DNA of 58,596 nt from Gaiellaceae bacterium (GTDB lineage Bacteria; Actinomycetota; Thermoleophilia; Gaiellales; Gaiellaceae). Under the pieces are notes generated by a model. That model saw only the letters and a list, made by a program, of their open reading frames with translations, ran no database searches and was not told the origin of the DNA. Below, one piece after another: positions 42,181 through 58,596 of this stretch. The DNA lies in contig DATMAP010000050.1 in the NCBI GenBank assembly GCA_035559835.1, positions 1-58,596 on the forward strand, read 5' to 3'. How positions within the stretch are numbered: position 1 is the first letter of the stretch; every line of letters starts with the position of its first letter. The position numbers were made by a program, and so were the translations under genes.

Positions 42181-43125
42181 GTGCGCATGCGAGCCCGACG
42201 GATCGCGAGGATGCATCTGGCTGCTGCGGCGCTCGCCGGGGTTGTCGGCCTTGCAGCGCTGACCGCGGGGTCGGCCTCGAGCGCGTCCTCGCGTTCCTCG
42301 GTCGATACGTACATCACTGGCAAGGTCATCGGGCGCATACCTGGACGGAACCTCGCCCTCGTCGAGATTGCCTGGGCCTACAAATGCCTCGGCGACAAGC
42401 TCGGCGAGTCGACCTACCAGTGGACGCTGAAGCTCGTGCGGCGAGCGCCGAAGCCCGAGAGGACGACCACGCTCGGGGAGGGCACGACGAAGAAGGGCAG
42501 CATGCGCCTCCGCCTTCCCCCTGGACAGTACCTGCCGATCGCGGATCCCTTCTTCTGCGAGACCGAGCGTGGCGCGGGCAGCGACAAGCCCGAGGTGGGC
42601 GCGCCGTTCGAGGTGCCCGACTACTGCGCGTGGAAGGTGACTGCAGCCAAGGGTGAGGTGCAGCTCGAAACCGGCGCGGCGGTCAAGCTCGCGAAGGCGG
42701 GATCCTCGGTGCGCCCGGGGGAGACGATCGTGACGCCCGCTGCCGGCTCGGCCACGCTCGTCTCCAACGGCGCGGACGGCCAAGTGGTCACCGGCGTCTC
42801 TACGCGTCTCGGGGTGAGCGCCAAGGGGTGCTCGGGCAAGGGCGCTTGGCGGTTGCAGCTCTCGGGGGGCAGCGTGACGGCCACGGTGCCGCCCAGCGCG
42901 GACACGACGCGTACGTACCAGGTGGCGACGGCGAACGCGACCGCGACCGCACGCGCACGTGCGACCTGGCGTGTGCAGTACGCCGCGGCGGGGCCGAGGA
43001 CTACCGTCAAGGCGCTCGCCGGCGCTGTGGTCGTCGCGGGTCGGGGCCGTTCCGCGGTGACGGTGACGAAAGGCCTGTCCACGGTCGTTACCGGGTCTGC
43101 GGCCCCCAGCAAGCCCGCCCCGTAG
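42181..43125 (+). CDS. secreted hypothetical protein (FecR-like beta-rich C-terminal region)
   Basis: Signal peptide ...AALAGVVGLAALTAGSASS. The segment GEVQLETGAAVKLAKAGSSVRPGETIVTPAAGSATL resembles FecR-domain proteins. Weak call. Confidence 0.55.
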   Translation: MRMRARRIARMHLAAAALAGVVGLAALTAGSASSASSRSSVDTYITGKVIGRIPGRNLALVEIAWAYKCLGDKLGESTYQWTLKLVRRAPKPERTTTLGEGTTKKGSMRLRLPPGQYLPIADPFFCETERGAGSDKPEVGAPFEVPDYCAWKVTAAKGEVQLETGAAVKLAKAGSSVRPGETIVTPAAGSATLVSNGADGQVVTGVSTRLGVSAKGCSGKGAWRLQLSGGSVTATVPPSADTTRTYQVATANATATARARATWRVQYAAAGPRTTVKALAGAVVVAGRGRSAVTVTKGLSTVVTGSAAPSKPAP

Positions 43126-44767
43126 TACGGCCCGTCAGGGCTGCTGCCGAGAGCAGGAAGAACGCTGGGTAGACCGGCACTCCGTACCATCCGAGGAGGA
43201 CGCCCGAGGCGGCATGCACGGCCAGGACGAGGACGGCCAGCGCAGTGAGCGCGAGCAGGACGAGGCTCCCACGGGGCCTGCGCAGGACGAGGGCAACCAG
43301 CCCGACGGCGAGCCAGAAGATCGGGCGCGGGAACTTCCACGACCAGCGCTTGAGCTGTTCCGCGAGCCAGACGGAGCCGTTCCGGGAGGGGAGATCCGCG
43401 TCCCACTCCGAGAGCTGCCGCACGAGCTCCGCGTACTGGCGCTGCTGCGCCGGGTTCTCCCACACGCTCGCCGGGTGGTCGATCGTGCAGCGCTCGAGGT
43501 AAGCGGAGGCGCACCATATCCAGCCGTACTCGGCGGCAGCGAGGAGAGGTCCGAGCGCTTCCGGGTTCGGCACCTTGTGGCCGCGGATCACCGTCGCCTG
43601 TGGCGGCTCGGACTCGGACTCGGGAGCATGCCGGACGCCGGGCTCCCGGATCGGGCGCTTGTGCAGGAAGCTCCACACGCCCGAGGCGATCCGCTCGGTC
43701 AGGGGCCAGAGGGCGAAGGCGCTCCCGTCCCCGCCGTGGCCGTCCTCGTCTCCCTCGCGCGCTGCCCGTCTGAGCACGCGGTAGTCGCTGTCCCAGCCCC
43801 AGAGCCGGTCGGAGAGAGCGAGCAGGTCGATGTACTCGTAGTTCGAGCCCGCGTCGAAGTACGTTTCGACGTCGACGCCGAGGGCGCGGTACTCGGGTTT
43901 CGTCAGGATCTCGCGCTCGACCGCCCGGGCGAGCTGGCGCGAGGCGGGCCCACCCTGGGGGTCGATGTTCCCCGACAGGTACTGGCGGAAGAAGGGGACC
44001 GAAGCGACGCGCAGGCGCGAGATCGTGAAGTCGTCGTAGCGGATCCCGTTGTAGGCAGCCCAACCGGCGAGGAGGGCGACAGCCGTTCCCGCGAAGGCGG
44101 CCGCCCAGGTCAGGCGCTGCCGGAGCCGTCCCGGAAGCACGAGTGGGACGACCGCGAAAGCGAGCAGCACCTGGTTCGGCGGCCGCGTCAGGACGAGCGC
44201 GACGGCGCCCGCGCCGAGGGCGGCGTACCTCCAGGTCGCTGGGCGGCGAGCGGTGAAGACGATACCCAGCGACCAGAGCGCGAAGCCGAGTGCAAAGACG
44301 CCGTCTGCGCCGACGTCGTGGAAGACGGCGCCGAAGGGGGCGTAGGCCAGGAGCACGATCGCCATGAGGACTGCGGGCAGGCGACCGAACGTCAACGCGG
44401 CGGCGCTCCAGGCGACGACCGCGACGGCGTACAGGAGGCTCATGACCGCCTCGAGCAGGAGGGCGCCCCCGAGGTCGAGTGGCACCCCGAGGACGACCGG
44501 AGCGACCGGGGTCCGGAACGCCATCAGGCGGCGGAACACCGGATCCCCTTCCCAGAGCTGGAGGTAGTAGCTCAGGTAATCCCAGGCGTCTCGGCCCCGC
44601 TCGAGCGGCCACGCGACGCTCTCGAGCCAGTAGACCGCGACGGCGGTTGCAAAGAGGAGGGCGGCAGCCTTCTTGGTTTGTGCGAACGCGTCGACGGGCG
44701 CCCACCACCGACGAGGCACGGCCGCAGACCGGCTCCTGAGCCGCCGCAGGGCTCCGGCCTCCGTCAC
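43088..44767 (-). CDS. large polytopic membrane protein, GT-C-like (ArnT/PMT-type) candidate
   Basis: 559 aa. About 9 N-terminal TM helices, a roughly 220-aa soluble loop, then 2 C-terminal TM helices, which is the architecture of GT-C glycosyltransferases. No diagnostic motif verified. Confidence 0.5.
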   Translation of the reverse strand: MTEAGALRRLRSRSAAVPRRWWAPVDAFAQTKKAAALLFATAVAVYWLESVAWPLERGRDAWDYLSYYLQLWEGDPVFRRLMAFRTPVAPVVLGVPLDLGGALLLEAVMSLLYAVAVVAWSAAALTFGRLPAVLMAIVLLAYAPFGAVFHDVGADGVFALGFALWSLGIVFTARRPATWRYAALGAGAVALVLTRPPNQVLLAFAVVPLVLPGRLRQRLTWAAAFAGTAVALLAGWAAYNGIRYDDFTISRLRVASVPFFRQYLSGNIDPQGGPASRQLARAVEREILTKPEYRALGVDVETYFDAGSNYEYIDLLALSDRLWGWDSDYRVLRRAAREGDEDGHGGDGSAFALWPLTERIASGVWSFLHKRPIREPGVRHAPESESEPPQATVIRGHKVPNPEALGPLLAAAEYGWIWCASAYLERCTIDHPASVWENPAQQRQYAELVRQLSEWDADLPSRNGSVWLAEQLKRWSWKFPRPIFWLAVGLVALVLRRPRGSLVLLALTALAVLVLAVHAASGVLLGWYGVPVYPAFFLLSAAALTGRTTGRACWGPQTR

Positions 44768-44777
44768 GGCCGGGAGC

Positions 44778-46235
44778 TTACCGGGAGAGGTCGTCCAGGA
44801 GGGCGCACAGGAGGCGGTAGAAGCGCGCCGTGCTCGAGATCGAGAGCCGCTCGCCGGGCGCGTGCGGCCCCACGATCTCGGGCCCGAGCGCGAGCATGCG
44901 GAGGCCGGGGAGCTTTGCCCCGAGCACGGCGCACTCGAGGCCGCCGTGGACGACCTCGGTCGCCGGCGGCCGCCCGAAGAGGCGCTCGTAGGTCGCGCTC
45001 GCGGCGGCGAGGAGCGGCGAGGCGGGGTCGGGCTGCCAGGGCGGGTAGGAGTGGACAGTCTCCACGCCGGCCCCTGCCAGGCGCGCGATCGCTTCCAGGC
45101 TCGCCACCGTGTCCTCGAGACCCGCCGGGCTCGCGCTCCGCGTCATCGAGGCGAGCTCGAGCGTTCCCTCCTCGGTGCGCGCGACGGTGAGGCAGGTGCT
45201 CGTCTCGACCGCTCCCGAGGGCTCCGGCGCGAGCGTGACCACGCCGCTCGGAAGCGCGGCCAGCAGGTCGAGCGCCCGCGCCGTCTCCTGCTCGGTGGCG
45301 GCGCCCGCGAGGCTTCCGGCCGCGCGCACCCGGAGCTCGAGCCGGTCCTCGCCCGGGTGCTGCGCGCGGATCTCCGTCAGCTCGCGCTCCGTCGCGGCCC
45401 GGAAGCCCGCCTCCGCGACCGCCGGTACCGCCACCGAGGCCGCGGCCTCGCGGGGGATCGCGTTCCGGCTGGCGCCGCCCTCGAGCCCGGCCAGCCGGAG
45501 CGGAGCGGCCTCGCGTCCTTCGCGCAGGATCCGTCCCAAGGCCTTGATCGCGTTCGCGCGTCCGCGGGCGATGTCGCCCCCGGAGTGACCGCCCCGGCCT
45601 CCGGTGACGGCTACCTCGAGCGCGACGTGTCCGGGCGGGAGCGGGTCGGGCCGGAGCGGCAGGCGGACGAGGGTGTGCGCGCTCCCGGCGCAGCCGATCG
45701 TCAGCGTCCCGTCGCTCGTCCCGTCCAGGTTCAGGAGCAGCCGTCCCGACACGAGCGCAGGGTCGAGGCCCTTGGCGCCCTCGAGGCCGTGCTCCTCGGA
45801 GACGGTGAGCAGGAGCTCGAGCGGCCCGTGCGCGACGTGCGGGTCCTCGGCCACCGCCAAAGCGGCGGCGACGCCGATGCCGTTGTCGGCGCCGAGCGTC
45901 GTCCCCTCGGCGCGCAGCCAGTCCCCGTCCCGGACGACGTCGATCCGGCCCGCACGGGGGTCGAAGAGGCTCGATGGATCGCGCTCGCAGACCATGTCCA
46001 GGTGCGCCTGCAGGACGACCACCGGCGCCGCCTCTCGGCCCGCTGAGGCCGGGACGCGGACGACCACGTTGCCCGTCGCGTCCGTCTGCGCCGCGAAGCC
46101 GTGGGTGTCCGCCCACGCGAGCACGTGCTCGCGGACGGCCGCTTCCTGCTTCGGCGGGCGCGGGATCCGGGTCAGCTCGGCGAACCGCGCCCAGACCAGC
46201 TCGGGCTCGAGCCCGGCGAACGCGGAGCGACTCAC
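44778..46235 (-). CDS. pepD: aminoacyl-histidine dipeptidase (M20C)
   Basis: GTG 46235. ...VLQAHLDMVCE..., GTTLGADNGIG, SEEHGLEGA, ...VHGGLECA... PepD signatures. Confidence 0.85.
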   Translation of the reverse strand: MSRSAFAGLEPELVWARFAELTRIPRPPKQEAAVREHVLAWADTHGFAAQTDATGNVVVRVPASAGREAAPVVVLQAHLDMVCERDPSSLFDPRAGRIDVVRDGDWLRAEGTTLGADNGIGVAAALAVAEDPHVAHGPLELLLTVSEEHGLEGAKGLDPALVSGRLLLNLDGTSDGTLTIGCAGSAHTLVRLPLRPDPLPPGHVALEVAVTGGRGGHSGGDIARGRANAIKALGRILREGREAAPLRLAGLEGGASRNAIPREAAASVAVPAVAEAGFRAATERELTEIRAQHPGEDRLELRVRAAGSLAGAATEQETARALDLLAALPSGVVTLAPEPSGAVETSTCLTVARTEEGTLELASMTRSASPAGLEDTVASLEAIARLAGAGVETVHSYPPWQPDPASPLLAAASATYERLFGRPPATEVVHGGLECAVLGAKLPGLRMLALGPEIVGPHAPGERLSISSTARFYRLLCALLDDLSR

Positions 46236-48761: not shown

Positions 48762-48776
48762 GGTGTCTGACACCGG
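48762..48776. promoter_or_regulatory. 15-nt element GGTGTCtGACACCgg (self-palindromic), right copy
   Basis: 8 nt before the ATG of the proline-racemase-family gene. A TTGACA hexamer lies at 48750-48755. Confidence 0.45.
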
Positions 48777-48783
48777 GGTGGAG

Positions 48784-49770
48784 ATGGGGGCTGTGAGCGC
48801 GGTCGACTACCACACCGGCGGCGAGCCGTTCCGGATCGTCACCGGCGGGGTCGAGGCGCCGAGGGGCGCGACCATCCTCGCCAAGCGCCGCGATGCGCTC
48901 GAGCGGCTCGACCACGTGCGGCGGCTGCTCGTCTACGAGCCCCGGGGGCATGCCGACATGTACGGCTGCTTCGTGGTCGAGCCCGACGACGATGGAGCCG
49001 ACCTCGGCGTCGTCTTCTTCCACAACGCCGGCTACTCGACCGCGTGCGGGCACGGCACGATCGCCCTCGTCACCTGGGCGCTCGACGAGGGCATCGTCCC
49101 GCGCCGGGAGGGGGAGAACCGGGTCGTCGTCGATGTCCCCTCCGGCCGGCTCGAGACCTGGGCGCGCGTGGAGGATGGACGCGTCCGCTCGGTTCGCTTC
49201 CGCAACGTCCCCGCCTTCGTCTGGGCCGAAGGGATCGAGGTGGCTGGACACACGCTGGATGTCGCCTTCGGCGGCGCGTTCTACGCGTCGCTCCAAGAGC
49301 GCGTGGAGCCGCGCGAGCTACCGCGCCTGATCGAGCTCGGCCGCCAGCTGAAGCGTGCGATCGAAGCCGAGCACGAGGTCGTGCACCCGCTCGAGCCCGA
49401 GCTTCGCGACATCTACGGCGTCATCTTCTGGCAGGAGGAGGAGGAGCGGGAGGGCGACCTCCCGCGCCTGCTCACCCAGCGCAACGTCACCGTCTTCGCC
49501 GACGGCGAGGTCGACCGCTCGCCCTGTGGGAGCGGTACCTCGGCCCGGCTCGCCCTCCTCGACCGCTCCGGGCGGCTTCCGCGCGGCGCCGAGCTCCGCC
49601 ACCTCTCCATCGTCGGCTCGGAGTTCCGCGGTCGCGTCGTCGCCGACACCGAGGTCGCCGGGCTGCCCGCGGTCGTCACCGAAGTCGAGGGCAGCGCCTA
49701 CCGCACGGGCGAGCACGTCTTCACCCTCGACCCCGACGATCCGCTCCGGGAGGGCTTCCTGCTCCGCTGA
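48784..49770 (+). CDS. proline racemase-family enzyme with Cys/Cys catalytic pair (proline racemase or 4-hydroxyproline 2-epimerase type)
   Basis: ATG 48784 gives MGAVSAVDYHTGGEPFRIV.... Catalytic STACGHG and DRSPCGSGTSA. The track start 48763 lies inside the palindrome. Confidence 0.85.
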   Translation: MGAVSAVDYHTGGEPFRIVTGGVEAPRGATILAKRRDALERLDHVRRLLVYEPRGHADMYGCFVVEPDDDGADLGVVFFHNAGYSTACGHGTIALVTWALDEGIVPRREGENRVVVDVPSGRLETWARVEDGRVRSVRFRNVPAFVWAEGIEVAGHTLDVAFGGAFYASLQERVEPRELPRLIELGRQLKRAIEAEHEVVHPLEPELRDIYGVIFWQEEEEREGDLPRLLTQRNVTVFADGEVDRSPCGSGTSARLALLDRSGRLPRGAELRHLSIVGSEFRGRVVADTEVAGLPAVVTEVEGSAYRTGEHVFTLDPDDPLREGFLLR

Positions 49771-49790: not shown

Positions 49791-50009
49791 CTACTCGAGC
49801 GCGGCGAGGATCTCGGCCGGCTCGGGGAAGCGGCCTTCCGTGCGCTTCGAGAAGAGGAGCTGCCCGTCCGCGCGGACGTCGAACTGTCCCTTGGCGCCCG
49901 GGGTGATCGTCGCCGGGATCCCGGTCTTCGACTCGATCTCGGCCGCGAGACTCGCGGCTCGGGTGTCGTAGCCGGTTCAGGTCGGGCAGTAGAAGATCTC
50001 GACCCGCAC
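49791..50009 (-). CDS. SelW/Rdx-family selenoprotein (CxxU), in-frame TGA at 49979..49977
   Basis: Not in the ORF track. Minus-strand translation from GTG 50009: (M)RVEIFYCPT-U-TGYDTRAASLAAEIESKTGIPATITPGAKGQFDVRADGQLLFSKRTEGRFPEPAEILAALE*. The CxxU is in the Rdx redox-motif position, and GQFDV...G.LLFSK...GRFP is typical of the family. High GC3 on both sides of the TGA. Confidence 0.8.
49942..49958 (-). promoter_or_regulatory. candidate SECIS hairpin for the SelW-like gene
   Basis: RNA GCCGCG-AGUCU-CGCGGC (a 7th A-U pair is possible) starts 18 nt after the UGA. The apical loop contains GU. Confidence 0.55.
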
Positions 50010-50042
50010 GCCACCAAGCCTAGTCAGCGGTACAGTCCGGCC

Positions 50043-50285
50043 GTGGCCACCGTCTTCGAGGTCGAGCAGGCGGGCTGCCCGAGCTGCGCACGCCGCGTGC
50101 GTGGCGCGCTGGAGGCGCTCGCCGCCGTCGCCGAGCTGACGATCGACGAGGAGCAGGACGTCGCCACCGTGCGCCTGGCTGACGCCGGCGCGTCCGAGGA
50201 CGCCGTCAACCGCGTCCTTGCCGAGGCGTCACAGGGGAGCGGCCACGCCTACCGCGTGAGACCGGGCTCCTGGCGCTCCGAGTAG
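50043..50285 (+). CDS. heavy-metal-associated (HMA)-like small protein with CxxC
   Basis: GTG 50043 gives (M)ATVFEVEQAGCPSCARRVRGALEALAAVAELTIDEEQDVATVRL..., a ferredoxin-like HMA layout with GCPSC in place of GMxCxxC. High GC3. Confidence 0.65.
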   Translation: MATVFEVEQAGCPSCARRVRGALEALAAVAELTIDEEQDVATVRLADAGASEDAVNRVLAEASQGSGHAYRVRPGSWRSE

Positions 50286-51258: not shown

Positions 51259-51352
51259 CGACGCGGACGATACAGGACATCCTCGAAATCGTCTGGCGGG
51301 ATGAGCGTGCGCAGCCTACGGTGCTCTCTGCACACCCGAGTGAGGAGGCAGC

Positions 51353-51874
51353 ATGCCCCAGGAGCGCATCCGGGAGTCGATCGAGGCGGCACGTGGGTAT
51401 CTGAGCGAGCATCCCGAGGAGGCGCGCGCGCACGACCTGCCGGCCACGGCGGTGCTCGAGGAGGGGCTCCGCTGCCGGGTCGAGGGCCCCGCCGGCACGG
51501 CGATCGTGACGGACATGCCCGCGGCGGTCGGGGGTATGGCCTCCGCGCCGACGCCCGGCTGGCTGGCGCGCGCGGCGCTCGCGAGCTGCGACGCGACGGT
51601 GCTCGCCATGCGGGCCGCCGAGCTCGGGATCGCGATCGAGCGGATCGAGGTGACCGTCGAGAGCGAGTCCGACGACCGCGGCCTGCTCGGAGTCGCCGAG
51701 GCGCCGGCCGGGCCGCTCAGCGTGCGCGTGCGTGCCAGGCTGGTCGGAGGGAGCGTGGACGACGACGCGGTGCGCGCGCTGCGCTCGTGGCTCGAGGACC
51801 ACTCGCCCGTCGGCGGCGTCTACCGGCACGGCGTGCCGACCACCCTCGAGCTCGAGACGGTGGCCGTGCCGTGA
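51353..51874 (+). CDS. OsmC/Ohr-family protein
   Basis: 173 aa, GAGGAGG RBS. ...APTPGWLARAALASCDATV.... Divergent from the LysR gene. Confidence 0.8.
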   Translation: MPQERIRESIEAARGYLSEHPEEARAHDLPATAVLEEGLRCRVEGPAGTAIVTDMPAAVGGMASAPTPGWLARAALASCDATVLAMRAAELGIAIERIEVTVESESDDRGLLGVAEAPAGPLSVRVRARLVGGSVDDDAVRALRSWLEDHSPVGGVYRHGVPTTLELETVAVP

Positions 51875-52620
51875 TCCTGCGCCCGTTCCTGTACGAGCCG
51901 ACCTCGTGCGCGAGCTACCTCTTCGGCTGTACGACGCAGGGGCAGCTTGCGGTCGTGGACCCGCACTCCGAGCTCGTCGAGGCCTATCTCGAGACCGCGC
52001 GCGACCTCGGCCACCCCATCGTCGCGGCCTTCGAGACGCACGTCCAGGCCGACCACGTCTCCGGGCTCCCCGAGCTCGTCGCGGCTGGCGCGACCGCGTA
52101 CCTGCCCGCGGGGGCCGGCGTCTCCTTCCCGCACGTCGCGCTCGCGGGCGGCGAGCGCATCGAGCTCGGCAACACGCTCGTGACCGCGCTCGCGACGCCC
52201 GGCCATGCCCCCGCGCACGCGGCGTACGCCGTCGCCGACCGACGCCGCGGCGACGAGGAGCCCTGGCTCGTCTTCACGGGGGACTCCCTGCTCGTGAACG
52301 ACGTCGGCCGCCCCGACCTGCACGCGACGGGCGACCCCGAGCCGCTCGCCCGGGAGCTGCACGCATCCCTGCGGAGGCTTCTGGCGCTGCCCGACGACGT
52401 GCTCGTCCTGCCGAGCCACTACGGGGGCTCGGTGTGCGGCCGTGCCCTCTCCGGGAACCCCTTCTCGACCATCGGCTTCGAACGGCGCCACAACCGCGCG
52501 CTCGCCCTCGACGAGGACGCCTTCGCCGAGGCGGCGCTGCGCGACCTGCCCCCGCCCCCGGCGGAGCAGGAGGCGATCGTGGCGGCGAACCGCGCCGGAC
52601 GGCCGCGAGCCGCGGCGTGA
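51871..52620 (+). CDS. MBL-fold hydrolase (persulfide-dioxygenase / glyoxalase-II-like) with variant metal motif
   Basis: GTG 51871 (GTGA overlap). ...SYLFGC..., ETHVQADHVSG (HxQxDH rather than HxHxDH), TPGHAPAH, FTGDSLLVNDVGRPDL. Confidence 0.8.
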   Translation: MILRPFLYEPTSCASYLFGCTTQGQLAVVDPHSELVEAYLETARDLGHPIVAAFETHVQADHVSGLPELVAAGATAYLPAGAGVSFPHVALAGGERIELGNTLVTALATPGHAPAHAAYAVADRRRGDEEPWLVFTGDSLLVNDVGRPDLHATGDPEPLARELHASLRRLLALPDDVLVLPSHYGGSVCGRALSGNPFSTIGFERRHNRALALDEDAFAEAALRDLPPPPAEQEAIVAANRAGRPRAAA

Positions 52621-53843
52621 GCTCGATCCGGCTGGGCCTGCGGGCGAACGCCCGCCAGTTCTCCCTGCTCGTCGGGATCACGGGACTCGTCGGGGCGGCC
52701 GCCGGCCTCGAGCGCAGCGTCCTCCCGCTCGTCGGCGAGGAGGAGTTCGGGATCGCGTCGCGGACGGCGATCCTCGCCTTCGTCGCCACCTTCGGGGCCG
52801 CGAAGGCGGCGGCCAACCTCTTCTCCGGGCCGCTCGCGGAGCGGTCGGCCCGGAAGCGCGTGCTCGTGCTCGGCTGGCTGGCCGTGCTGCCGGTGGGGCC
52901 GATCGTCGCGCTCGCGCCCTCCTGGTCGACCATCGTCGCCGCCAACGCGCTCCTCGGCGCCGGCCAGGGCCTCGCTTGGTCGATGACGATCGTGATGAAG
53001 ATCGACCTCGTCGGCCCGGCGCGCCGAGGCCTGGCTCTGGGGCTGAACGAGGCGGCGGGCTACCTCGGGGTCGCCGTCGCGGCCTTCGCGACCGGGGCGG
53101 CAGCGAGCGCGGTCTCGCCGCGGACGGCGGTGTGGGTCGGGATGGCGGGCGTGTCGGCGCTCGGGCTGCTCGCCTCGCTCGTCCCGGCGCGGGACACCTC
53201 GGCGCACGTCGCGCACGAGCAGGCCGCGCACGGAGCGGCGCGGGCGGCGTCGCTGCGGCGCGCGCTCGGAGCGAGCGTGCGCGCTCCCGTGCTGCGCGCC
53301 TGCTCCCAGGCGGGCTTCGTCAACAACCTGAACGACGCCGTGCTCTGGGGCCTCGTCCCCCTCTACCTCGCGGCGCGCGGCGCGACCGCGGCCGAGATCG
53401 GGCTCGCGGCAGGCGTGTATCCGGCCGTCTGGGGGCTCGGGCAGGTCGCCACCGGCTGGGCCTCCGACCACCTCGGGCGCAAGCCGCTCGTCGTCGCCGG
53501 GATGCTCGTGCAGGGCGCCGCGCTCGCGCTCCTGGCTGCCGGAGGTGGCGATCTCGCCTCCGCTCTCGTCGCCTCCGTGCTCCTCGGCCTGGGCACGGCG
53601 CTCGCCTACCCGACGCTGATCGCGGCCGTCTCCGACGTGGTCAGCCCCCGGGACCGAGCGCCCGCCGTCGGCGTCTACCGCTTCTGGCGAGACGCCGGCT
53701 TCGTCGCCGGCGCCGTCGCGGTCGGGCTCGTCGCCGACGCCGCGGGAGCGCAGGCGGCGATCGGCGTGACCGCCGCGCTGACCGCCCTCTCGGGGGTGTG
53801 GGTCGCGGCCGTCCGCTTCGCTACGAGCGCGTCGCGCGGATGA
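52617..53843 (+). CDS. MFS transporter
   Basis: GTG 52617 (GTGA overlap). 12-TM-like profile. ...DHLGRKP... loop motif. Confidence 0.8.
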   Translation: MSSIRLGLRANARQFSLLVGITGLVGAAAGLERSVLPLVGEEEFGIASRTAILAFVATFGAAKAAANLFSGPLAERSARKRVLVLGWLAVLPVGPIVALAPSWSTIVAANALLGAGQGLAWSMTIVMKIDLVGPARRGLALGLNEAAGYLGVAVAAFATGAAASAVSPRTAVWVGMAGVSALGLLASLVPARDTSAHVAHEQAAHGAARAASLRRALGASVRAPVLRACSQAGFVNNLNDAVLWGLVPLYLAARGATAAEIGLAAGVYPAVWGLGQVATGWASDHLGRKPLVVAGMLVQGAALALLAAGGGDLASALVASVLLGLGTALAYPTLIAAVSDVVSPRDRAPAVGVYRFWRDAGFVAGAVAVGLVADAAGAQAAIGVTAALTALSGVWVAAVRFATSASRG

Positions 53844-54615
53844 CCGCGCAGACGGCGATCCGTTCGAGCCGCTCGGGCGCGATCAGCCGGCGCATGGTCG
53901 CGAGCAGCTCCTCCGTGAAGAGCGGGTAGAGCTCGCAGTCCGCGATTCCCATCGGCGTCCGCTCGAGCACCTCGATCTCCGAGAAGCCCGCCCGCTCGAG
54001 CTTTCCGACGAAGTCACGCTCCGTCAGGGCACCCGCCACTCAGCCGGCCCAGGCAGCCGGGTGCGTCAGCACCTCCGGCGGGAGCTCCTCGTCCTCCACG
54101 GTGACGTCGGCGACGCAGAGCTCGCCGCCGGGCCTCAGCACGCGCGCGCACTCGGCCAGCGCCCGCGCCTTGCGCGGCGAAAGGTTGATGACCCCGTTCG
54201 AGAGCACGCAGTCGACGCTCGCCTCGGGAAGCGGGATCGCCTCCATCTCCCCCTCGAGCGTCTCCACGTTGTCGAGCCCGGCCTCCTGCGCCGCCGCGGC
54301 CGTCCGCCCGAGCATCTCGGGGAGGAAGTCGAGCGCGAGCACGCGGCCGGAGGGGCCCGTTCGGTGCGCAGCCAGGATCGTGTCGATGCCAGCGCCGCAG
54401 CCGAGATCGAGGACGGTGTCGCCCGGCCGGATGCGCGCGTGGCGGAGGTGGTTGCCGACGCCGAGGGCGCGCCCGACCGCCGACGCCGGGACGAGGGCGA
54501 GCTCCTCGGGCGAGTAGAGCCTCTCGGCGACCGCGCGGCTCTCGCCGTCGACCGCGCGGTAGGCCTCGCGCACGAGCGCCCGGATCTCGTCTTGGTGCAG
54601 GAGGTCGCGGGTCAT
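53821..54615 (-). CDS. ArsM/AS3MT-like SAM-dependent methyltransferase, probable selenoprotein (in-frame TGA at 54042..54040)
   Basis: Track ORFs 54040..54615 and 53821..54039 are contiguous and in the same frame. Joined: ...VLDLGCGAGID...VLSNGVINLS...LTHPAAWAG-U-VAGALTERDFVGKLERAGF.... The U sits where ArsM/AS3MT have the conserved Cys of W.GC.AGAL. Confidence 0.75.
54005..54027 (-). promoter_or_regulatory. candidate SECIS hairpin for the methyltransferase gene
   Basis: RNA CUGACGGAG-CGUGA-CUUCGUCGG: 9-bp stem (2 G-U pairs), 5-nt loop containing GU. Starts 12 nt after the UGA. Confidence 0.5.
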
Positions 54616-54845
54616 GCTCCGCCGAGCTCGTCGAGCGTCGCCACGAGCCGGGCGCGGACCTGCGGCGGGAGGTCGTCCTCGGCGTGGGCGGCGAGGAAGG
54701 CGCGGAGCTCCTCCGCGAACTCGAGCTCGCCGCAGCAGCGGCGACAGAAGGCGAGGTGCTCCTCGACCTGCGCGCGCCGCGACTCCTCGACGATCCCGTC
54801 GAGGTAGTCCCAGAGCTGACGCACTGCCTCCGCGCAGGTGATCAC
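54612..54845 (-). CDS. ZAS-family (RsrA-like) anti-sigma factor
   Basis: GTG 54845 gives (M)ITCAEAVRQLWDYLDG...EEHLAFCRRCCGELEF. HxxxCxxC zinc/redox motif plus N-terminal Cys. GTGA and ATGA overlaps with both neighbours. Confidence 0.8.
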   Translation of the reverse strand: MITCAEAVRQLWDYLDGIVEESRRAQVEEHLAFCRRCCGELEFAEELRAFLAAHAEDDLPPQVRARLVATLDELGGA

Positions 54846-55441
54846 GCGCGCGCGCCTTCCTTCAGGAGGCCGTTCCGCTCGGCGTAGCTCCAGAGCTCGC
54901 GCTCGAAGAGCTTCCGCCCGCGGTGGAGCCGCGCGAGCATCGTCCCCAGCGGCACCTCGAGCATGAAGGCGACCTCCTTCACGTGGTAGCCGGCCATGTG
55001 CACGAGGACGAGGGGGACGCGGTACAGCTCGGGCAGCGAGGCGAGGACGGCGCGCACGTCCTCGCCGCCGAACTGCTGCAGGAAGTCGAGGTGCACCGAG
55101 TCCGAGTACGGGAAGGGGTCCTCGTCGGCGATCTTCCGGAAGAGCGAGAACTCGTCGGCCTTCTCCAGCTCGACGGTCTCGACCCGGCGTCCCTGCGCGC
55201 GCCAAAGGTCGTGGCAGCAGTTGACGAGGATCGCCGTGAGCCAGTCGCGCCCGGCACCGTCGTCCGCGAGCTGGGAGAAGCCTCGGTAGGCGCGGAGCAG
55301 GCACTCCTGGACGACGTCCTCGGCGTCGTCGCCGACGAGGCGGCGCGCGAGCGCGTACAGCCGGCCGAGCTCGCTCTCGGCGAGCCTCCGGAACCGCTCG
55401 ACCGAGGCGGTGCCGCTGCCCGTGGAGATGGCGTCGCCCAC
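54842..55441 (-). CDS. ECF-type RNA polymerase sigma-70 family factor
   Basis: Region 2 (DAEDVVQECLLRAYRGF) and region 4 HTH (VKEVAFMLEVPLGTMLARLHRGRKLF). Confidence 0.85.
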   Translation of the reverse strand: MGDAISTGSGTASVERFRRLAESELGRLYALARRLVGDDAEDVVQECLLRAYRGFSQLADDGAGRDWLTAILVNCCHDLWRAQGRRVETVELEKADEFSLFRKIADEDPFPYSDSVHLDFLQQFGGEDVRAVLASLPELYRVPLVLVHMAGYHVKEVAFMLEVPLGTMLARLHRGRKLFERELWSYAERNGLLKEGARA

Positions 55442-55481
55442 AACTCCGCTCCCTCGTAGAGACGCTCCCGGAGAGGAAGTT

Positions 55482-55495
55482 ATTGCAGGTGCAAT
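55482..55495. promoter_or_regulatory. AT-rich palindrome ATTGCA-gg-TGCAAT
   Basis: Sits in the 117-bp divergent gap between the ECF sigma gene (start 55441, -) and the OsmC gene (55559, +). The local sequence is the most AT-rich stretch of the gap. Confidence 0.35.
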
Positions 55496-55558
55496 GAGAT
55501 CCGGGACGCGGCCGTCTTACCGGGGGAGAGAGCAGGGAATCCGAACAGGAGGGAGGAG

Positions 55559-56131
55559 ATGGCGACCGTAACGGTGCGCAACGGCGTCGACGTGGGGGCG
55601 CTGCTCGAGACGATCGACGCGATCAAGGCCAAGCCAGAGCTCGCGAGCTTCACCTTCCGCGCGCGTACCCGGTGGCAGGAGGGGACGTGCGCGACCGCGC
55701 AGATCGGCTCGTTCCTGCACGCGGGGGCGGAGGACGGGACCCGCGAGCAGCCCTTCACGCTCGTGGGCGACGAGCCGCCCGTGCTCCTCGGGCACAACCA
55801 GGGCCCGAACGCGGTCGAGCTCCTGCTGGCCGCGCTCGGCTTCTGCTACTCGGTCGGCTACGTGGCGAACGCGGCCGCGCGCGGGATCGAGATCGAGGAG
55901 ATGTCGTACGAGCTCGAGGGCGACCTCGACGTCCGCAGCTTCCTCGGCCTCGAGGGCGGCGCTCGTCCCGGGTTCACGGAGATCCGGGCAAAGGCGCGCG
56001 TCAAGGCCCCGGGAGCGAGCAAGCAGGAGCTGAAGGAGCTCTGCGCCTACGTGCAGGACACGTCGCCGGTCCTGGACGCGCTCGCGAATCCGGTGCCGGT
56101 CAAGACGACGATCGAGGTGCTCGGGGCGTAG
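55559..56131 (+). CDS. OsmC-family protein
   Basis: 190 aa, GGAGGGAGGAG RBS. ...NAVELLLAALGFCYSVGY... OsmC-like core. Confidence 0.8.
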   Translation: MATVTVRNGVDVGALLETIDAIKAKPELASFTFRARTRWQEGTCATAQIGSFLHAGAEDGTREQPFTLVGDEPPVLLGHNQGPNAVELLLAALGFCYSVGYVANAAARGIEIEEMSYELEGDLDVRSFLGLEGGARPGFTEIRAKARVKAPGASKQELKELCAYVQDTSPVLDALANPVPVKTTIEVLGA

Positions 56132-56152
56132 CGGCTTCAGCCGCTACGCCCC
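56123..56152 (+). terminator. perfect 13-bp stem hairpin spanning the OsmC stop codon
   Basis: ggggcgtagcggc-ttca-gccgctacgcccc. No U-tract follows, so it may act as a terminator, attenuator or mRNA-stability element. Confidence 0.5.
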
Positions 56153-56173
56153 GAACGACAGAGAGGAGCGACG

Positions 56174-56677
56174 ATGAGCACCGTCGCGACCCGGCACGGA
56201 ACGGCCGAAGAGGCGGGTTCGAGGCTGCGGCTCGGCACGGGCCTGATGACGCTCGGCGCGGCCGCGTTCATCGGCTACGCCGTCGTCTTCTTCGTGCGCA
56301 ACTTCACCGACAGCTTCCTCGAGCTCGGGATCGGACCCGGCCAAGTGAGCGTGGGCAAGGAGGAGATCCAGGACTTCAGCCCCTCCCTCTACGACTACGT
56401 CGGCCACCTGCACATCGCCGTCTCCGGCTTCATCGCCGCGACCGGCCTCGCCGTAGTCTTCCTGAGCTGGTTCGGCGTCCGGCGCGGGCAGGCGTGGGCC
56501 TGGGTCGGGGCTGTCGCGGCGCCCGTGCTCGGGCTCGCCGTCGCGCTGCCTGCCCACTATCCGTACGGCTTCGACACGATCGGCCACCTGGGGCTGATCT
56601 ACCTGGCCACGGCCATCTTCGTCGTCGGTGCCGTGCTCTCGGGCCAAGCGCTGCTCGCCGGGCGGGTGGGGCGCTGA
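56174..56677 (+). CDS. hypothetical membrane protein (4 TM)
   Basis: 167-aa ORF with four hydrophobic helices, GAGAGGAG RBS. No family recognised. Confidence 0.6.
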   Translation: MSTVATRHGTAEEAGSRLRLGTGLMTLGAAAFIGYAVVFFVRNFTDSFLELGIGPGQVSVGKEEIQDFSPSLYDYVGHLHIAVSGFIAATGLAVVFLSWFGVRRGQAWAWVGAVAAPVLGLAVALPAHYPYGFDTIGHLGLIYLATAIFVVGAVLSGQALLAGRVGR

Positions 56678-56694
56678 GCCGGATGGAGCAGTTA

Positions 56695-56720
56695 GCCGCG
56701 CCGGCCGAGGCCGGCGCGGC
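56695..56720 (+). terminator. perfect 11-bp GC stem hairpin
   Basis: gccgcgccggc-cgag-gccggcgcggc, 18 nt after the stop of the 56174-56677 gene. No U-tract. Confidence 0.5.
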
Positions 56721-56804
56721 GACCTGCGATCGGGAAAAGCGATGGACGGTATCCCGATGCTCGGGTTGACCGATGGAGTAGGACGGCGTAGGGTCGAAGC
56801 GCCG

Positions 56805-57503
56805 ATGGCGTCGTCCTCACACGGGAACGGAGAGGCGGCAGCCGTGACCGTCGGCTCCCGCAGCGCGAGAGTCGCAACCCGTCTGGGGACGCTCGGCGGG
56901 AGGGACCGGGCGCAGGTGGCGGCAGGGAGCGCCCTGGTCGCCGCCTCGGCGCTTGCCTGGCTCGCGCTCGCTGGCACCGAGCCGCCGCTGGGCGCGGCCG
57001 GCTTCCTCGCTGGCTGGACGCTGATGATGGTGGCGATGATGCTCCCCTCGATCCTGCCGCTCGTGCTGCTCCACCGCGGCTCACGGGCGGGGTTGGTGGC
57101 GGGGTACCTGGGCGTCTGGAGCGCGCTCGGCCTCCTCCCGTACGCGGCCATGGAGTGGGGCCTCGAGCTCGGGCTCCCGCTCGTGCTCGCGCTCGCGGGC
57201 CTGTACGAGCTGAGCCCGCTGAAGTCCGCCTGCCTGCGGCGATGCCGCAACGTTGCCGGGTTCCTGCTCGAGCACTACCGCAGCGGGCCGCTCCGGCTCG
57301 GGGCCGAGCACGGCCTGTGGTGCGCCGGCTGCTGCGCAGGCCTGATGGCGCTGCTCGTGCTCGCCGCCTCCATGGGCCTGCAGTGGGCGGCGGCGATCGC
57401 GGCGGTCGTGTTCGTCCAGAAGGTCCTGTCCTTCGGCGAGCCCTCGGCCCGGGTCGTGGGCGCCGGGCTGCTCGCCGCCGCCGCGCTCGTCGCGGTCACC
57501 TGA
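56805..57503 (+). CDS. DUF2182-like predicted metal-binding integral membrane protein
   Basis: ATG 56805 (alternatives 56742 and 56757). ...FLAGWTLMMVAMMLPSILP... and ...SPLKSACLRRCR... are typical of DUF2182, assigned from memory. Confidence 0.7.
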   Translation: MASSSHGNGEAAAVTVGSRSARVATRLGTLGGRDRAQVAAGSALVAASALAWLALAGTEPPLGAAGFLAGWTLMMVAMMLPSILPLVLLHRGSRAGLVAGYLGVWSALGLLPYAAMEWGLELGLPLVLALAGLYELSPLKSACLRRCRNVAGFLLEHYRSGPLRLGAEHGLWCAGCCAGLMALLVLAASMGLQWAAAIAAVVFVQKVLSFGEPSARVVGAGLLAAAALVAVT

Positions 57504-57515
57504 GAGGAGAGTGGA

Positions 57516-58121
57516 ATGGCCGAGTCGTGGACGATGAAGGGGACGGTCCTGATCGCGTGCAACTGCGCCTACGGCTGCCCGTGCAACTTCAACGCCCTGC
57601 CGACGACCGGCAAGTGCGAGGGAGAGTGGACGTGGCACGTCGAGGAGGGCGCCTACGGCACCGTCGACCTCCGCAGCGTGACTTTCACGCTGGCCGTGAA
57701 CTGGCCGGGCGCGATCCACGAGGGCAACGGCGTCGCTCTGCTGCTGGTCGACGAGCGCACGACCCCCGCGCAGCGGGACGCGATCCACACCCTGGTCAAG
57801 GGCGAGGCGGGCGGCCCCTGGGGCGTCCTCGGCTGGACGTGGCCGACGCTGCACGGGCCGGAGGCCGTGTCCTTCGAGCTCGAGCTGGACGGCCTTCGCT
57901 CCCGCGTCCGCGCGGGCGCAGGGTTCGAGCTGGAGCTGGAGCCGATCCGGAACCCCGTCTCCGGGGCGGAGGTGACGCCGGGCGCGGTGCTTCCGCAGGG
58001 GATCGTCTTCAAGCAGGGCGACTTCGCCTCCACGAGGAGGTACCGGGTGGAGGCGCTGGGCATCGACTACCGGGATACGTACGCGGCCGTGGCGCCCTTC
58101 GACTACGCCGGAGGGAAGTGA
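57516..58121 (+). CDS. DUF1326-like Cys-rich protein
   Basis: N-terminal W.MKGTVLIACNCAYGCPCNFNALPTTGKCEG cysteine cluster and about 200 aa length. GAGGAGAGTGG RBS. Confidence 0.7.
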   Translation: MAESWTMKGTVLIACNCAYGCPCNFNALPTTGKCEGEWTWHVEEGAYGTVDLRSVTFTLAVNWPGAIHEGNGVALLLVDERTTPAQRDAIHTLVKGEAGGPWGVLGWTWPTLHGPEAVSFELELDGLRSRVRAGAGFELELEPIRNPVSGAEVTPGAVLPQGIVFKQGDFASTRRYRVEALGIDYRDTYAAVAPFDYAGGK

Positions 58122-58596
58122 TGGCGATCGAGGCGGACATCGACGTCGGGCTGCTCAAGTCCGAGATCCGCAAGACGTACGCGGCCGTCTCGCAGGAGCC
58201 GGAGCGGGAGTTCGTCTTCCCGACCGGCCGCGCCTGGGCCGAGGACCTCGGCTATCCGCCCGAGCTGGCGCGGGTGCCCGACTTCGTCGTGGAGTCGTTC
58301 GCCGGCGTCGCCAACCCCTTCTCGCTCGGCCGCCTCGAGCAGGGCGAGCGGGTGCTCGACGTGGGCTCGGGGGCCGGCACCGACTCGCTCGTGGCGGCGC
58401 TCATGGTGGGGCCGGAGGGCTCGGTCACAGGGATCGACATGACGCCTGAGATGCTCGCGAAGGCACGGGCCGGCGCGGCCGAGCTCGGGCTCTCGAACGT
58501 GACCTTCGTGGAGGGCGAGGCGGAGGCGCTTCCGTTCGCCGATGCGAGCTTCGACGTCGCCGTCTCCAACGGGGTCATCGACCTCATCCCGGACAA
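58121..58596 (+). CDS. ArsM-like SAM-dependent methyltransferase paralog, 3' end outside window
   Basis: Not in the ORF track (no stop in window). ATG 58121 overlaps the upstream TGA by 1 nt. MAIEADIDVGLLKSEIRKTYAAVSQ...VLDVGSGAGTD...VAVSNGVIDLIPD. Like the 53821-54615 gene, it lacks the first two ArsM cysteines. Confidence 0.75.
   Translation, partial: MAIEADIDVGLLKSEIRKTYAAVSQEPEREFVFPTGRAWAEDLGYPPELARVPDFVVESFAGVANPFSLGRLEQGERVLDVGSGAGTDSLVAALMVGPEGSVTGIDMTPEMLAKARAGAAELGLSNVTFVEGEAEALPFADASFDVAVSNGVIDLIPD

Follow-up and report, generated by a model that had tools for sequence, protein, structure and literature searches.

Does the gap between a proline-racemase-family gene and a small HMA-like gene in a Gaiellaceae genome hold a selenoprotein gene, in which an in-frame UGA is read as selenocysteine (Sec)? 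This question arises in a DNA stretch of 58,596 nucleotides from Gaiellaceae bacterium (GenBank assembly GCA_035559835.1, contig DATMAP010000050.1), hereafter called the window, where the segment 50009..49791 of the minus strand had been proposed in an earlier note to encode a SelW/Rdx-family protein hidden from open reading frame (ORF) finders by its TGA codon. We found that this segment is very probably a functional gene for a SelW-like (Rdx family) selenoprotein of 72 residues. The decisive evidence is comparative, namely the TGA retained in 82 of 84 sequences and a freeze of synonymous sites, and not the hairpin alone. The features on which the argument rests are as follows.

49791..50009, minus strand: coding sequence of the very probable SelW-like (Rdx family) selenoprotein, 72 residues, from translation, profile models and a full-length alignment of 84 orthologues
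49986..49988, minus strand: codon TGC of Cys8, which is Cys in 83 of 83 orthologues (TGC in 80, TGT in 3) and falls on the first CxxC Cys of Rdx proteins in the PDB
49977..49979, minus strand: in-frame UGA, codon 11, the proposed Sec codon, TGA in 82 of 84 orthologues and aligned with the second Cys of CxxC
49942..49958, minus strand: hairpin GCCGCG-AGUCU-CGCGGC of the Sec insertion sequence (SECIS) type, within the coding sequence at codons 18-23 (AASLAA)
50017..50022, minus strand: putative -10 hexamer TAGGCT, 7 nt ahead of the GTG

In the window, the translation of the minus strand from 50009 to 49791 is VRVEIFYCPT*TGYDTRAASLAAEIESKTGIPATITPGAKGQFDVRADGQLLFSKRTEGRFPEPAEILAALE*, and the Sec-containing reading is GTG-RVEIFYCPT-TGA-TGYDTRAASLAAE...ALE-TAG, with a GTG start codon and a TAG stop codon at 49793..49791. 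The mechanical ORF list of the window has no entry for this gene. The earlier note had described a minus-strand gene with TGA as its 11th codon (49979..49977), lying between the proline-racemase-family and HMA-like genes, and both the sequence and the ORF list confirm this, the two neighbours being located at 48763-49770 and 50043-50285. Its statement that third codon positions stay rich in G/C on both sides of the TGA also held, with 10 of 10 codons ahead of the TGA and a fraction of 0.93 past it, in a window whose overall G+C content is 73%. In the public gene calls of three near-identical metagenome contigs, HMA is followed by Pro_racemase with nothing called between them. Sequencing error as the source of the TGA was dismissed, because four independent near-identical assemblies (2-4 differences per 219 nt) all carry it. 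The near-identical contigs were located via the enoyl-CoA hydratase and LysR ORFs; they are at most 4.2 kb long and add no extra flank, and a contig search with the proline-racemase ORF from GTG 48763 gave no match.

We scanned the 72-residue protein against hidden Markov models with U masked as C, and the family assignment made from sequence motifs in the earlier note proved correct: membership of the Rdx/SelW-like family is established. With the Pfam model Rdx (PF10262) the score was 58 bits (gathering score 22.6, E = 1.1e-15), residues 2-70 being aligned to profile positions 1-71 of 74, and the NCBIfam model TIGR02174 (CXXU_selWTH) gave 45.8 bits, above its cut-off of 34.2. The best-scoring NCBIfam model was the equivalog NF041051 (SelTWH_Campy), which aligned end to end with residues 3-71 at 65.6 bits; this score is below its 88-bit cut-off, and the protein is a separate actinobacterial subfamily outside that equivalog. 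Sequence matches in the PDB were MIEN1 2ljk (E = 3.6e-6, the best), SAV_2001 3dex, Atu0228 2fa8, 2ojl, 2p0g, 2oka and 2obk, and in the three alignments shown (2ljk, 3dex and 2fa8) the second Cys of CxxC falls on the TGA position. From this alignment, Cys8 is the predicted resolving partner of the CxxU redox motif.

The fold was modelled on the closest full-length database homologue (P0003, 72% identical) as a proxy for the window protein. Its AlphaFold model (predicted local distance difference test score 92, predicted template modelling score 0.78) has the order β1 (2-7), loop, α1 (14-29), β2, β3, β4, α2, and the CxxU motif, C8-P-T-U11, lies in the loop joining β1 and α1. When this model was compared with the PDB using Foldseek, the best 22 matches were all Rdx-family structures (template modelling (TM) scores 0.72-0.84), followed by ArsD and thioredoxins; the bacterial SelW-related structures at the top had TM scores of 0.76-0.84 and root-mean-square deviations of 1.7-2.8 Å. 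The window protein is accordingly predicted to have a thioredoxin-like β-α-β-β-β-α Rdx fold. The solved Cys-type Rdx proteins Atu0228 (2fa8), Q7WAF1 (2ojl), the VC SelW-related protein (2p0g), PA Q9HYQ7 (2oka), the P. fluorescens protein 2obk and SAV_2001 (3dex) have the same fold with the redox motif at the same position; however, they carry CxxC instead of CxxU, are 23-30% identical and have extra C-terminal residues, the solved bacterial homologues being chains of 103-108 residues whereas members of the window family have 71-75. To our knowledge, none of the bacterial Rdx proteins has a defined function or substrate.

We next consider the codon at position 11 across relatives. Among 5.8 billion predicted proteins, a search identified 30 relatives, of which 8 were full length and 22 were truncated at the N terminus. 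In the 8 full-length relatives, the residue at the Sec position is W, S or G. The W products are artefacts of translation with genetic code 4, because the DNA underlying them (loci L001 and L004) has TGA there. The codon of the S product is TCA (L002, 591-809) and that of the G product is GGA (L003, 870-1088), each one base from TGA; such forms are preferentially recovered because protein databases take in uninterrupted ORFs only. The Ser and Gly variants are on short contigs and were each seen once, and may represent either genuine alleles that have lost Sec or errors of sequencing. Among the truncated calls, with ORFs of 39-60 amino acids, the internal starts differ between sequences, and some of these fragments are labelled 'selT/selW/selH-like putative selenoprotein' by JGI.

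Genomes were scanned at one per species with a pattern derived from 9 sequences, in which the Sec codon was left unconstrained, and 435 relatives were found among the species-representative genomes. The comparative counts rest on the best 80 of these 435 genomic relatives, and the 84 sequences extracted consist of 83 related loci and the window's own gene. The best 80 loci all come from metagenome-assembled genomes (MAGs) labelled Gaiellaceae, Gaiellales, Thermoleophilia or Actinomycetota. At codon 11, 82 of the 84 orthologues have TGA, one has TCA and one has GGA, and the Cys codons TGC and TGT do not occur in any of them. On either side of it the encoded residue is invariant while the codon varies: Pro9 is encoded by CCC (44), CCG (33), CCA (4) and CCT (2), and Gly13 by GGC (52), GGG (23), GGT (4) and GGA (4). 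The start-codon column contains GTG in 53 and ATG in 25 of 83 sequences. These patterns point to protein-level selection in one frame on both sides of the TGA. Two MAGs contain two Rdx copies on different contigs (L020 and L022; L047 and L048), identical in MFD10007.bin.3.89 and different in SC-S_metawrap_bin.19, which may be duplications, paralogues or the result of mixed bins.

The same alignment bears on the possibility that the TGA is a true stop, so that the locus would be a pseudogene or would encode a short C-terminal fragment from an internal start. Gene finders do call either nothing here or, in relatives, the N-terminally truncated ORFs of 39-60 amino acids mentioned above; however, the internal starts chosen by the gene callers vary by sequence. 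The ten codons ahead of the TGA are conserved as protein (VEIxYCPT), including the synonymously variable Pro9, and form β1 and the redox Cys of the Rdx fold, and both the start-codon column and the promoter-like box lie upstream of them. Moreover, a nonsense mutation would not last across about 80 species-level genomes. We therefore regard a true stop as having a close to negligible probability, and the reading of these codons as the first part of a selenoprotein was retained.

If codon 11 is decoded as Sec, a recoding signal is expected in the mRNA, and the earlier note had pointed to a GC hairpin beginning 18 nt after the UGA. This hairpin was found at 49958..49942. It spans nucleotides 18-34 downstream of the UGA and can be read in two ways, either as a 6-bp G+C stem with the loop AGUCU (spacing 24) or as 7 bp including an A-U pair with a GUC triloop (spacing 25), the loop thus beginning 24-25 nt past the UGA. 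Its free energy is -11.4 kcal/mol, and the surrounding 66 nt fold with z = -2.4 relative to dinucleotide shuffles. The published model of the bacterial SECIS (bSECIS) has an upper stem 4-16 bp long that carries an apical loop of 3-9 nt, a G among the first two loop nucleotides, usually as N1-G-[G/U]-N-N2 with N1 pairing N2, a distance of 16-37 nt from UGA to loop, and a minimum free energy of -7.5 kcal/mol or lower (PMC13188914). The window hairpin lies within all four published criteria, and 71 of 83 orthologues pass a perfect-stem version of the test.

Covariation was set aside as structural proof because the stem hardly varies, and synonymous-site entropy with internal controls was used in its place. 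Among 83 distinct orthologues, codon entropy is 0 bits at three successive codons of the hairpin, Ala19 (GCG in 80/80), Ser20 (AGT in 81/81) and Leu21 (CTC in 82/82), and 0.26, 0.49 and 0.65 bits at Ala22, Ala23 and Ala18, respectively. At control sites that are likewise invariant as amino acids and four- or sixfold degenerate (A33, P37, G38, V45, G49, S54, G59, R60, P62 and L71), it is 0.87-1.82 bits. AGT makes up 1.6% of Ser codons in the window genes, and the control Ser54 uses TCG, TCC and TCA. The loop is AGUCU in 80 of 83 orthologues, and a consensus fold of the 83 orthologues recovers the hairpin and shows no alternative conserved structure downstream. These results indicate that the hairpin is under RNA- or DNA-level selection beyond the coding of AASLAA, and that it is bSECIS-like in place and shape. 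Synonymous variation is also strongly suppressed outside the hairpin, at codons 3-12 (49977-50003, minus strand), for example at Val3 (GTC 77/80), Thr10 (ACC 75/78) and Ser12 (AGC 71/72); this could reflect leaderless initiation, the context of the UGA codon or an additional RNA element.

The SECIS of E. coli fdhF is likewise a hairpin within the coding sequence just downstream of the UGA, with G-U in a small, A-U closed apical loop, and the two apices resemble each other (GCA-GGUC-UGC in fdhF and GCGA-GUC-UCGC in the window). In contrast, the loop starts 18 nt past the UGA in fdhF and 24-25 nt in the window, and on sequence comparison the G+C stem in the window is perfectly paired over 6-7 bp, lacks a bulged U and has no conserved long lower helix; binding by SelB is putative.

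The presence of Sec decoding in this lineage can be approached in two ways, through the machinery itself and through other selenoproteins. ARAGORN detected no tRNA gene at all in the 58.6-kb window and no tRNA-Sec in 84 related loci, and tblastn with E. coli SelA, SelB and SelD gave no match either in the window itself or in the related loci (about 1.3 Mb). Likewise, none of 34 window ORFs scanned against protein-family libraries matches the SelA, SelB or SelD family, and tblastn with E. coli FdhF gave no match in the window and related loci. The Sec machinery is not linked to the Rdx gene. When the window was scanned for TGA codons with coding-like sequence around them, a second candidate was detected 4 kb from the Rdx gene.

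53821..54615, minus strand: gene for an ArsM-like S-adenosylmethionine-dependent methyltransferase, the second candidate selenoprotein, from ATG 54615 to TAG 53821 with an in-frame TGA at 54042..54040

This protein matches the arsenite methyltransferase model NF008823 across the TGA (216.7 bits, residues 26-262) and also matches the NCBIfam ArsM selenoprotein models. In alignment with ArsM 5evj, its TGA falls on the Cys of GECLAGAL and gives the motif U-V-A-G, UxxG being the pattern listed for the known ArsM selenoprotein family (PMC13188914). The TGA is kept at the same site in three other MAG loci (L045, 81% identical; L013 and L027, 41-44%) and is followed by a bSECIS-compatible hairpin of 9 bp with the loop CGUGA, a spacing of 21 and -10.8 kcal/mol. 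At the other As(III)-binding position, the Cys in SNCVINL of 5evj is replaced by Gly (SNGVINL), and for this reason the substrate may not be arsenite. A further methyltransferase paralogue, from 58154 to the window end, is 44% identical to the ArsM-like Sec protein and is cut before the would-be Sec position. A TGA at 57501-57503 (plus strand) was rejected as a further Sec site; GAGGAG and ATG follow it, as at an ordinary gene junction.

Because two unrelated families have a conserved TGA at known Sec sites, a Sec-decoding lineage is by far the simplest reading of these sequences. The link that the earlier note had drawn to the methyltransferase was thus substantiated. Its other two proposals also fared well: the SECIS check returned a hairpin that agrees with the bSECIS model and has frozen synonymous sites, albeit with no Rfam SECIS match, and the Sec reading itself agrees with conservation of the TGA across about 80 species-level genomes, none of which has a Cys form, the frozen hairpin and the use of TGA as a normal stop elsewhere.

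Several points weigh against a Sec-decoded gene. Two metagenomic relatives have TCA (Ser) or GGA (Gly) in place of the TGA, and the Sec-decoding machinery of the organism is assumed, the 58.6-kb window and about 1.3 Mb of related loci having yielded no selA, selB or selD homologue and no tRNA-Sec. The bSECIS criteria are unspecific in DNA of 73% G+C, so that the hairpin by itself is weak evidence: 16.8% of arbitrary TGA triplets in the window precede a qualifying bSECIS hairpin and 5.4% precede one at least as stable. Stem covariation is nearly nil, as only the outermost pair varies (GC 65, CG 3, GU 2, AU 1, CC 10). Over the whole window, no Rfam family matched at gathering score, and a search of 49880-50030 with E ≤ 10 gave only chance-level matches to unrelated families and no SECIS family; the hairpin is outside every curated Rfam SECIS family and fits the generic bSECIS model only. 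The prokaryotic SelW-like family is itself listed only as 'predicted with high confidence' (PMC13188914), and no prokaryotic SelW-like protein is known to have been shown by experiment to incorporate Sec. Finally, the basis for a redox function and a link to metals is homology, together with a gene neighbourhood that only a minority of loci share.

The first two of these points would also be expected if the UGA were read through without Sec, by a near-cognate or suppressor tRNA inserting Trp, Cys or Gly in an organism lacking Sec machinery, and the Trp given by some public gene calls could be taken in the same sense. However, the Trp calls are code-4 artefacts over a TGA codon, and Ser and Gly account for only 2 of 84 sequences, found preferentially through uninterrupted ORFs. 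In the Rdx family, codon 11 corresponds to the catalytic CxxC/CxxU site, and such read-through would not need a hairpin of bSECIS geometry frozen at synonymous sites. In addition, TGA is the commonest ordinary stop in the window, where it terminates 26 of 43 provisional gene calls and therefore is not reassigned, and a second known selenoprotein family shows the same pattern. We consider non-Sec read-through very unlikely.

The points concerning the hairpin could instead mean that the gene encodes a selenoprotein and the recoding signal lies elsewhere, the hairpin serving mRNA stability, as a site for a regulatory protein or as a DNA element. The absence of an Rfam match, the near absence of covariation, the chance frequency of bSECIS-like hairpins in window DNA and the low synonymous variation reaching codons 3-12 would agree with this. 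On the other hand, the position, stem length, loop size, loop G-U and stability of the hairpin fit the published bSECIS model, its apex resembles the experimentally defined fdhF SECIS, and the consensus fold offers no other conserved structure downstream. A role other than SECIS is in our estimation extremely unlikely, and we retain the reading of a Sec codon followed by its own bSECIS.

Beyond the observed family, fold, motif, conserved UGA and conserved hairpin, a mechanism can be proposed by reference to the well-established route of Sec insertion in bacteria. When the elongating ribosome arrives at the UGA, the complex SelB·GTP·Sec-tRNA(Sec) would bind the hairpin as a bSECIS, and Sec would be delivered at codon 11 instead of termination. 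By analogy, the mature protein might be a small oxidoreductase that cycles between the selenol/thiol form and a Cys8-Sec11 selenenylsulfide.

The region upstream of the gene suggests how it might be expressed. Of 78 distinct upstream regions of orthologues, 72 have a TANNNT box that ends 6-8 nt ahead of the start, most commonly TAGAGT or TAGGCT, and the box occurs almost nowhere else within 60 nt upstream; only 5 of the 78 regions have a Shine-Dalgarno-like 4-mer. Leaderless genes with such a promoter architecture are known in actinobacteria. By comparison with them, the box is a putative promoter, and the Rdx mRNA is probably leaderless, beginning at the start codon, so that the gene would have its own promoter. 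A leaderless transcript would have its Sec UGA at nucleotides 31-33 and its hairpin at nucleotides 52-68. An operon with the upstream gene was rejected, as upstream neighbours vary between subclades and the promoter-like box is directly ahead of the start; a monocistronic gene fits because the upstream neighbour differs between subclades. The nearest downstream neighbour is on the opposite strand in 59 of 77 loci, and is a Ser/Thr kinase-like gene in 32 loci and a proline-racemase-family gene, as in the window, in 16.

The family, the motif and the recoding mechanism are already established, and the understanding of selenoproteins is unchanged by this gene. Zhang, Gladyshev and colleagues described the SelW-like proteins, whose recognition as a selenoprotein family widespread in bacteria dates from 2005-2006 (PMC1088965, PMC1794560), and a 2026 review lists a 'SELENOW-like protein, CxxU' under PF10262 (PMC13188914). 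The window protein shares with them the N-terminal CxxU between β1 and α1, a small single-domain thioredoxin-like fold and a SECIS within the ORF. Few or no Cys homologues of this family were reported in Sec-using organisms (PMC1794560), which matches the lack of a Cys form among the 84 sequences here. What differs, and is new, is the host lineage (Gaiellales/Thermoleophilia), a clade-specific, near-invariant SECIS sequence and an apparently leaderless-type promoter and mRNA. A literature search for Gaiella or Thermoleophilia with selenocysteine or selenoprotein gave only incidental co-mentions, and no paper linking Gaiellales or Thermoleophilia to selenoproteins.

Mammalian MIEN1 (C17orf37, 2ljk) has in common with the window protein the aligned CxxC/CxxU motif, the GxFE/D..G.L.FSK core and the Rdx fold. 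In mammalian SelW/MIEN1, the SECIS is in the 3΄ untranslated region and is bound by SBP2, unlike the hairpin within the ORF of the window gene. The partners of SelW/MIEN1, 14-3-3 and glutathione, are known only in animals, and nothing suggests a shared cellular role.

For annotation, the result is a correction, in that standard ORF finders fail to see a gene that is real and conserved, and public protein databases hold the family only as truncated fragments, code-4 Trp mistranslations and rare Ser/Gly variants. The Gaiellales, an abundant and poorly cultured soil lineage, appear to be a consistent selenium user, and the invariant 17-nt hairpin might serve as a simple DNA probe for the Rdx gene in this clade.

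The two genes that flank the Rdx gene are the following.

48763-49770, plus strand: proline-racemase-family gene
50043-50285, plus strand: small HMA-domain gene, GCPSC motif (Pfam HMA score 32.2 bits, gathering score 24.8)

Of 85 sequences searched, 59 contain the proline-racemase gene within the fetched DNA and 61-63 the two enoyl-CoA hydratase genes, and this co-occurrence looks like clade synteny, not a functional link. The HMA gene is on the opposite strand and divergent, and so is not a co-oriented neighbour; 33 bp separate the two start codons (50010-50042). It has a box of its own, TACAGT at 50031-50036 (plus strand), 6 nt ahead of its GTG. From the sequence, this arrangement implies putative back-to-back leaderless promoters, in which each -35 region would fall inside the other gene. 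The HMA gene is present in 6 of 84 related loci and is divergent, back to back with the Rdx gene, in 5 of those 6; it is associated with the selenoprotein gene as a neighbour but does not belong to it.

A cluster of genes with a metal and redox-stress theme adjoins the selenoprotein genes (51344-58596).

51344-51874: OsmC-like gene
within 51654-53843, plus strand: MFS transporter gene
54842-55516, minus strand: ECF sigma factor gene
55460-56131: second OsmC-like gene
56598-57503: PpoB2 copper-chaperone-like gene
57504-58121: DUF1326 gene
58154 to window end: second methyltransferase paralogue

The HMA gene, the Sec ArsM-like gene, the two OsmC genes, the copper-chaperone-like gene and the ECF sigma factor gene hint at metal(loid) or oxidative-stress chemistry, and the distant resemblance of the P0003 model to ArsD is likewise only a hint. 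A more specific proposal would be that the Gaiellales SelW-like protein, instead of being a housekeeping redox protein acting alone, is the redox partner in a selenium-dependent metal(loid) module with the HMA and Sec ArsM-like proteins, its recoding by SelB and SECIS taking place 30 nt from a leaderless 5΄ end without Shine-Dalgarno initiation; we regard this as speculative and rather unlikely.

Elsewhere in the window, a 684-codon ORF at 43088-45142 (minus strand) has a coding-like G+C pattern and no Pfam or NCBIfam match. The 3΄ end of the HMA gene overlaps a convergent LysR gene by 80 bp (50206-50285).

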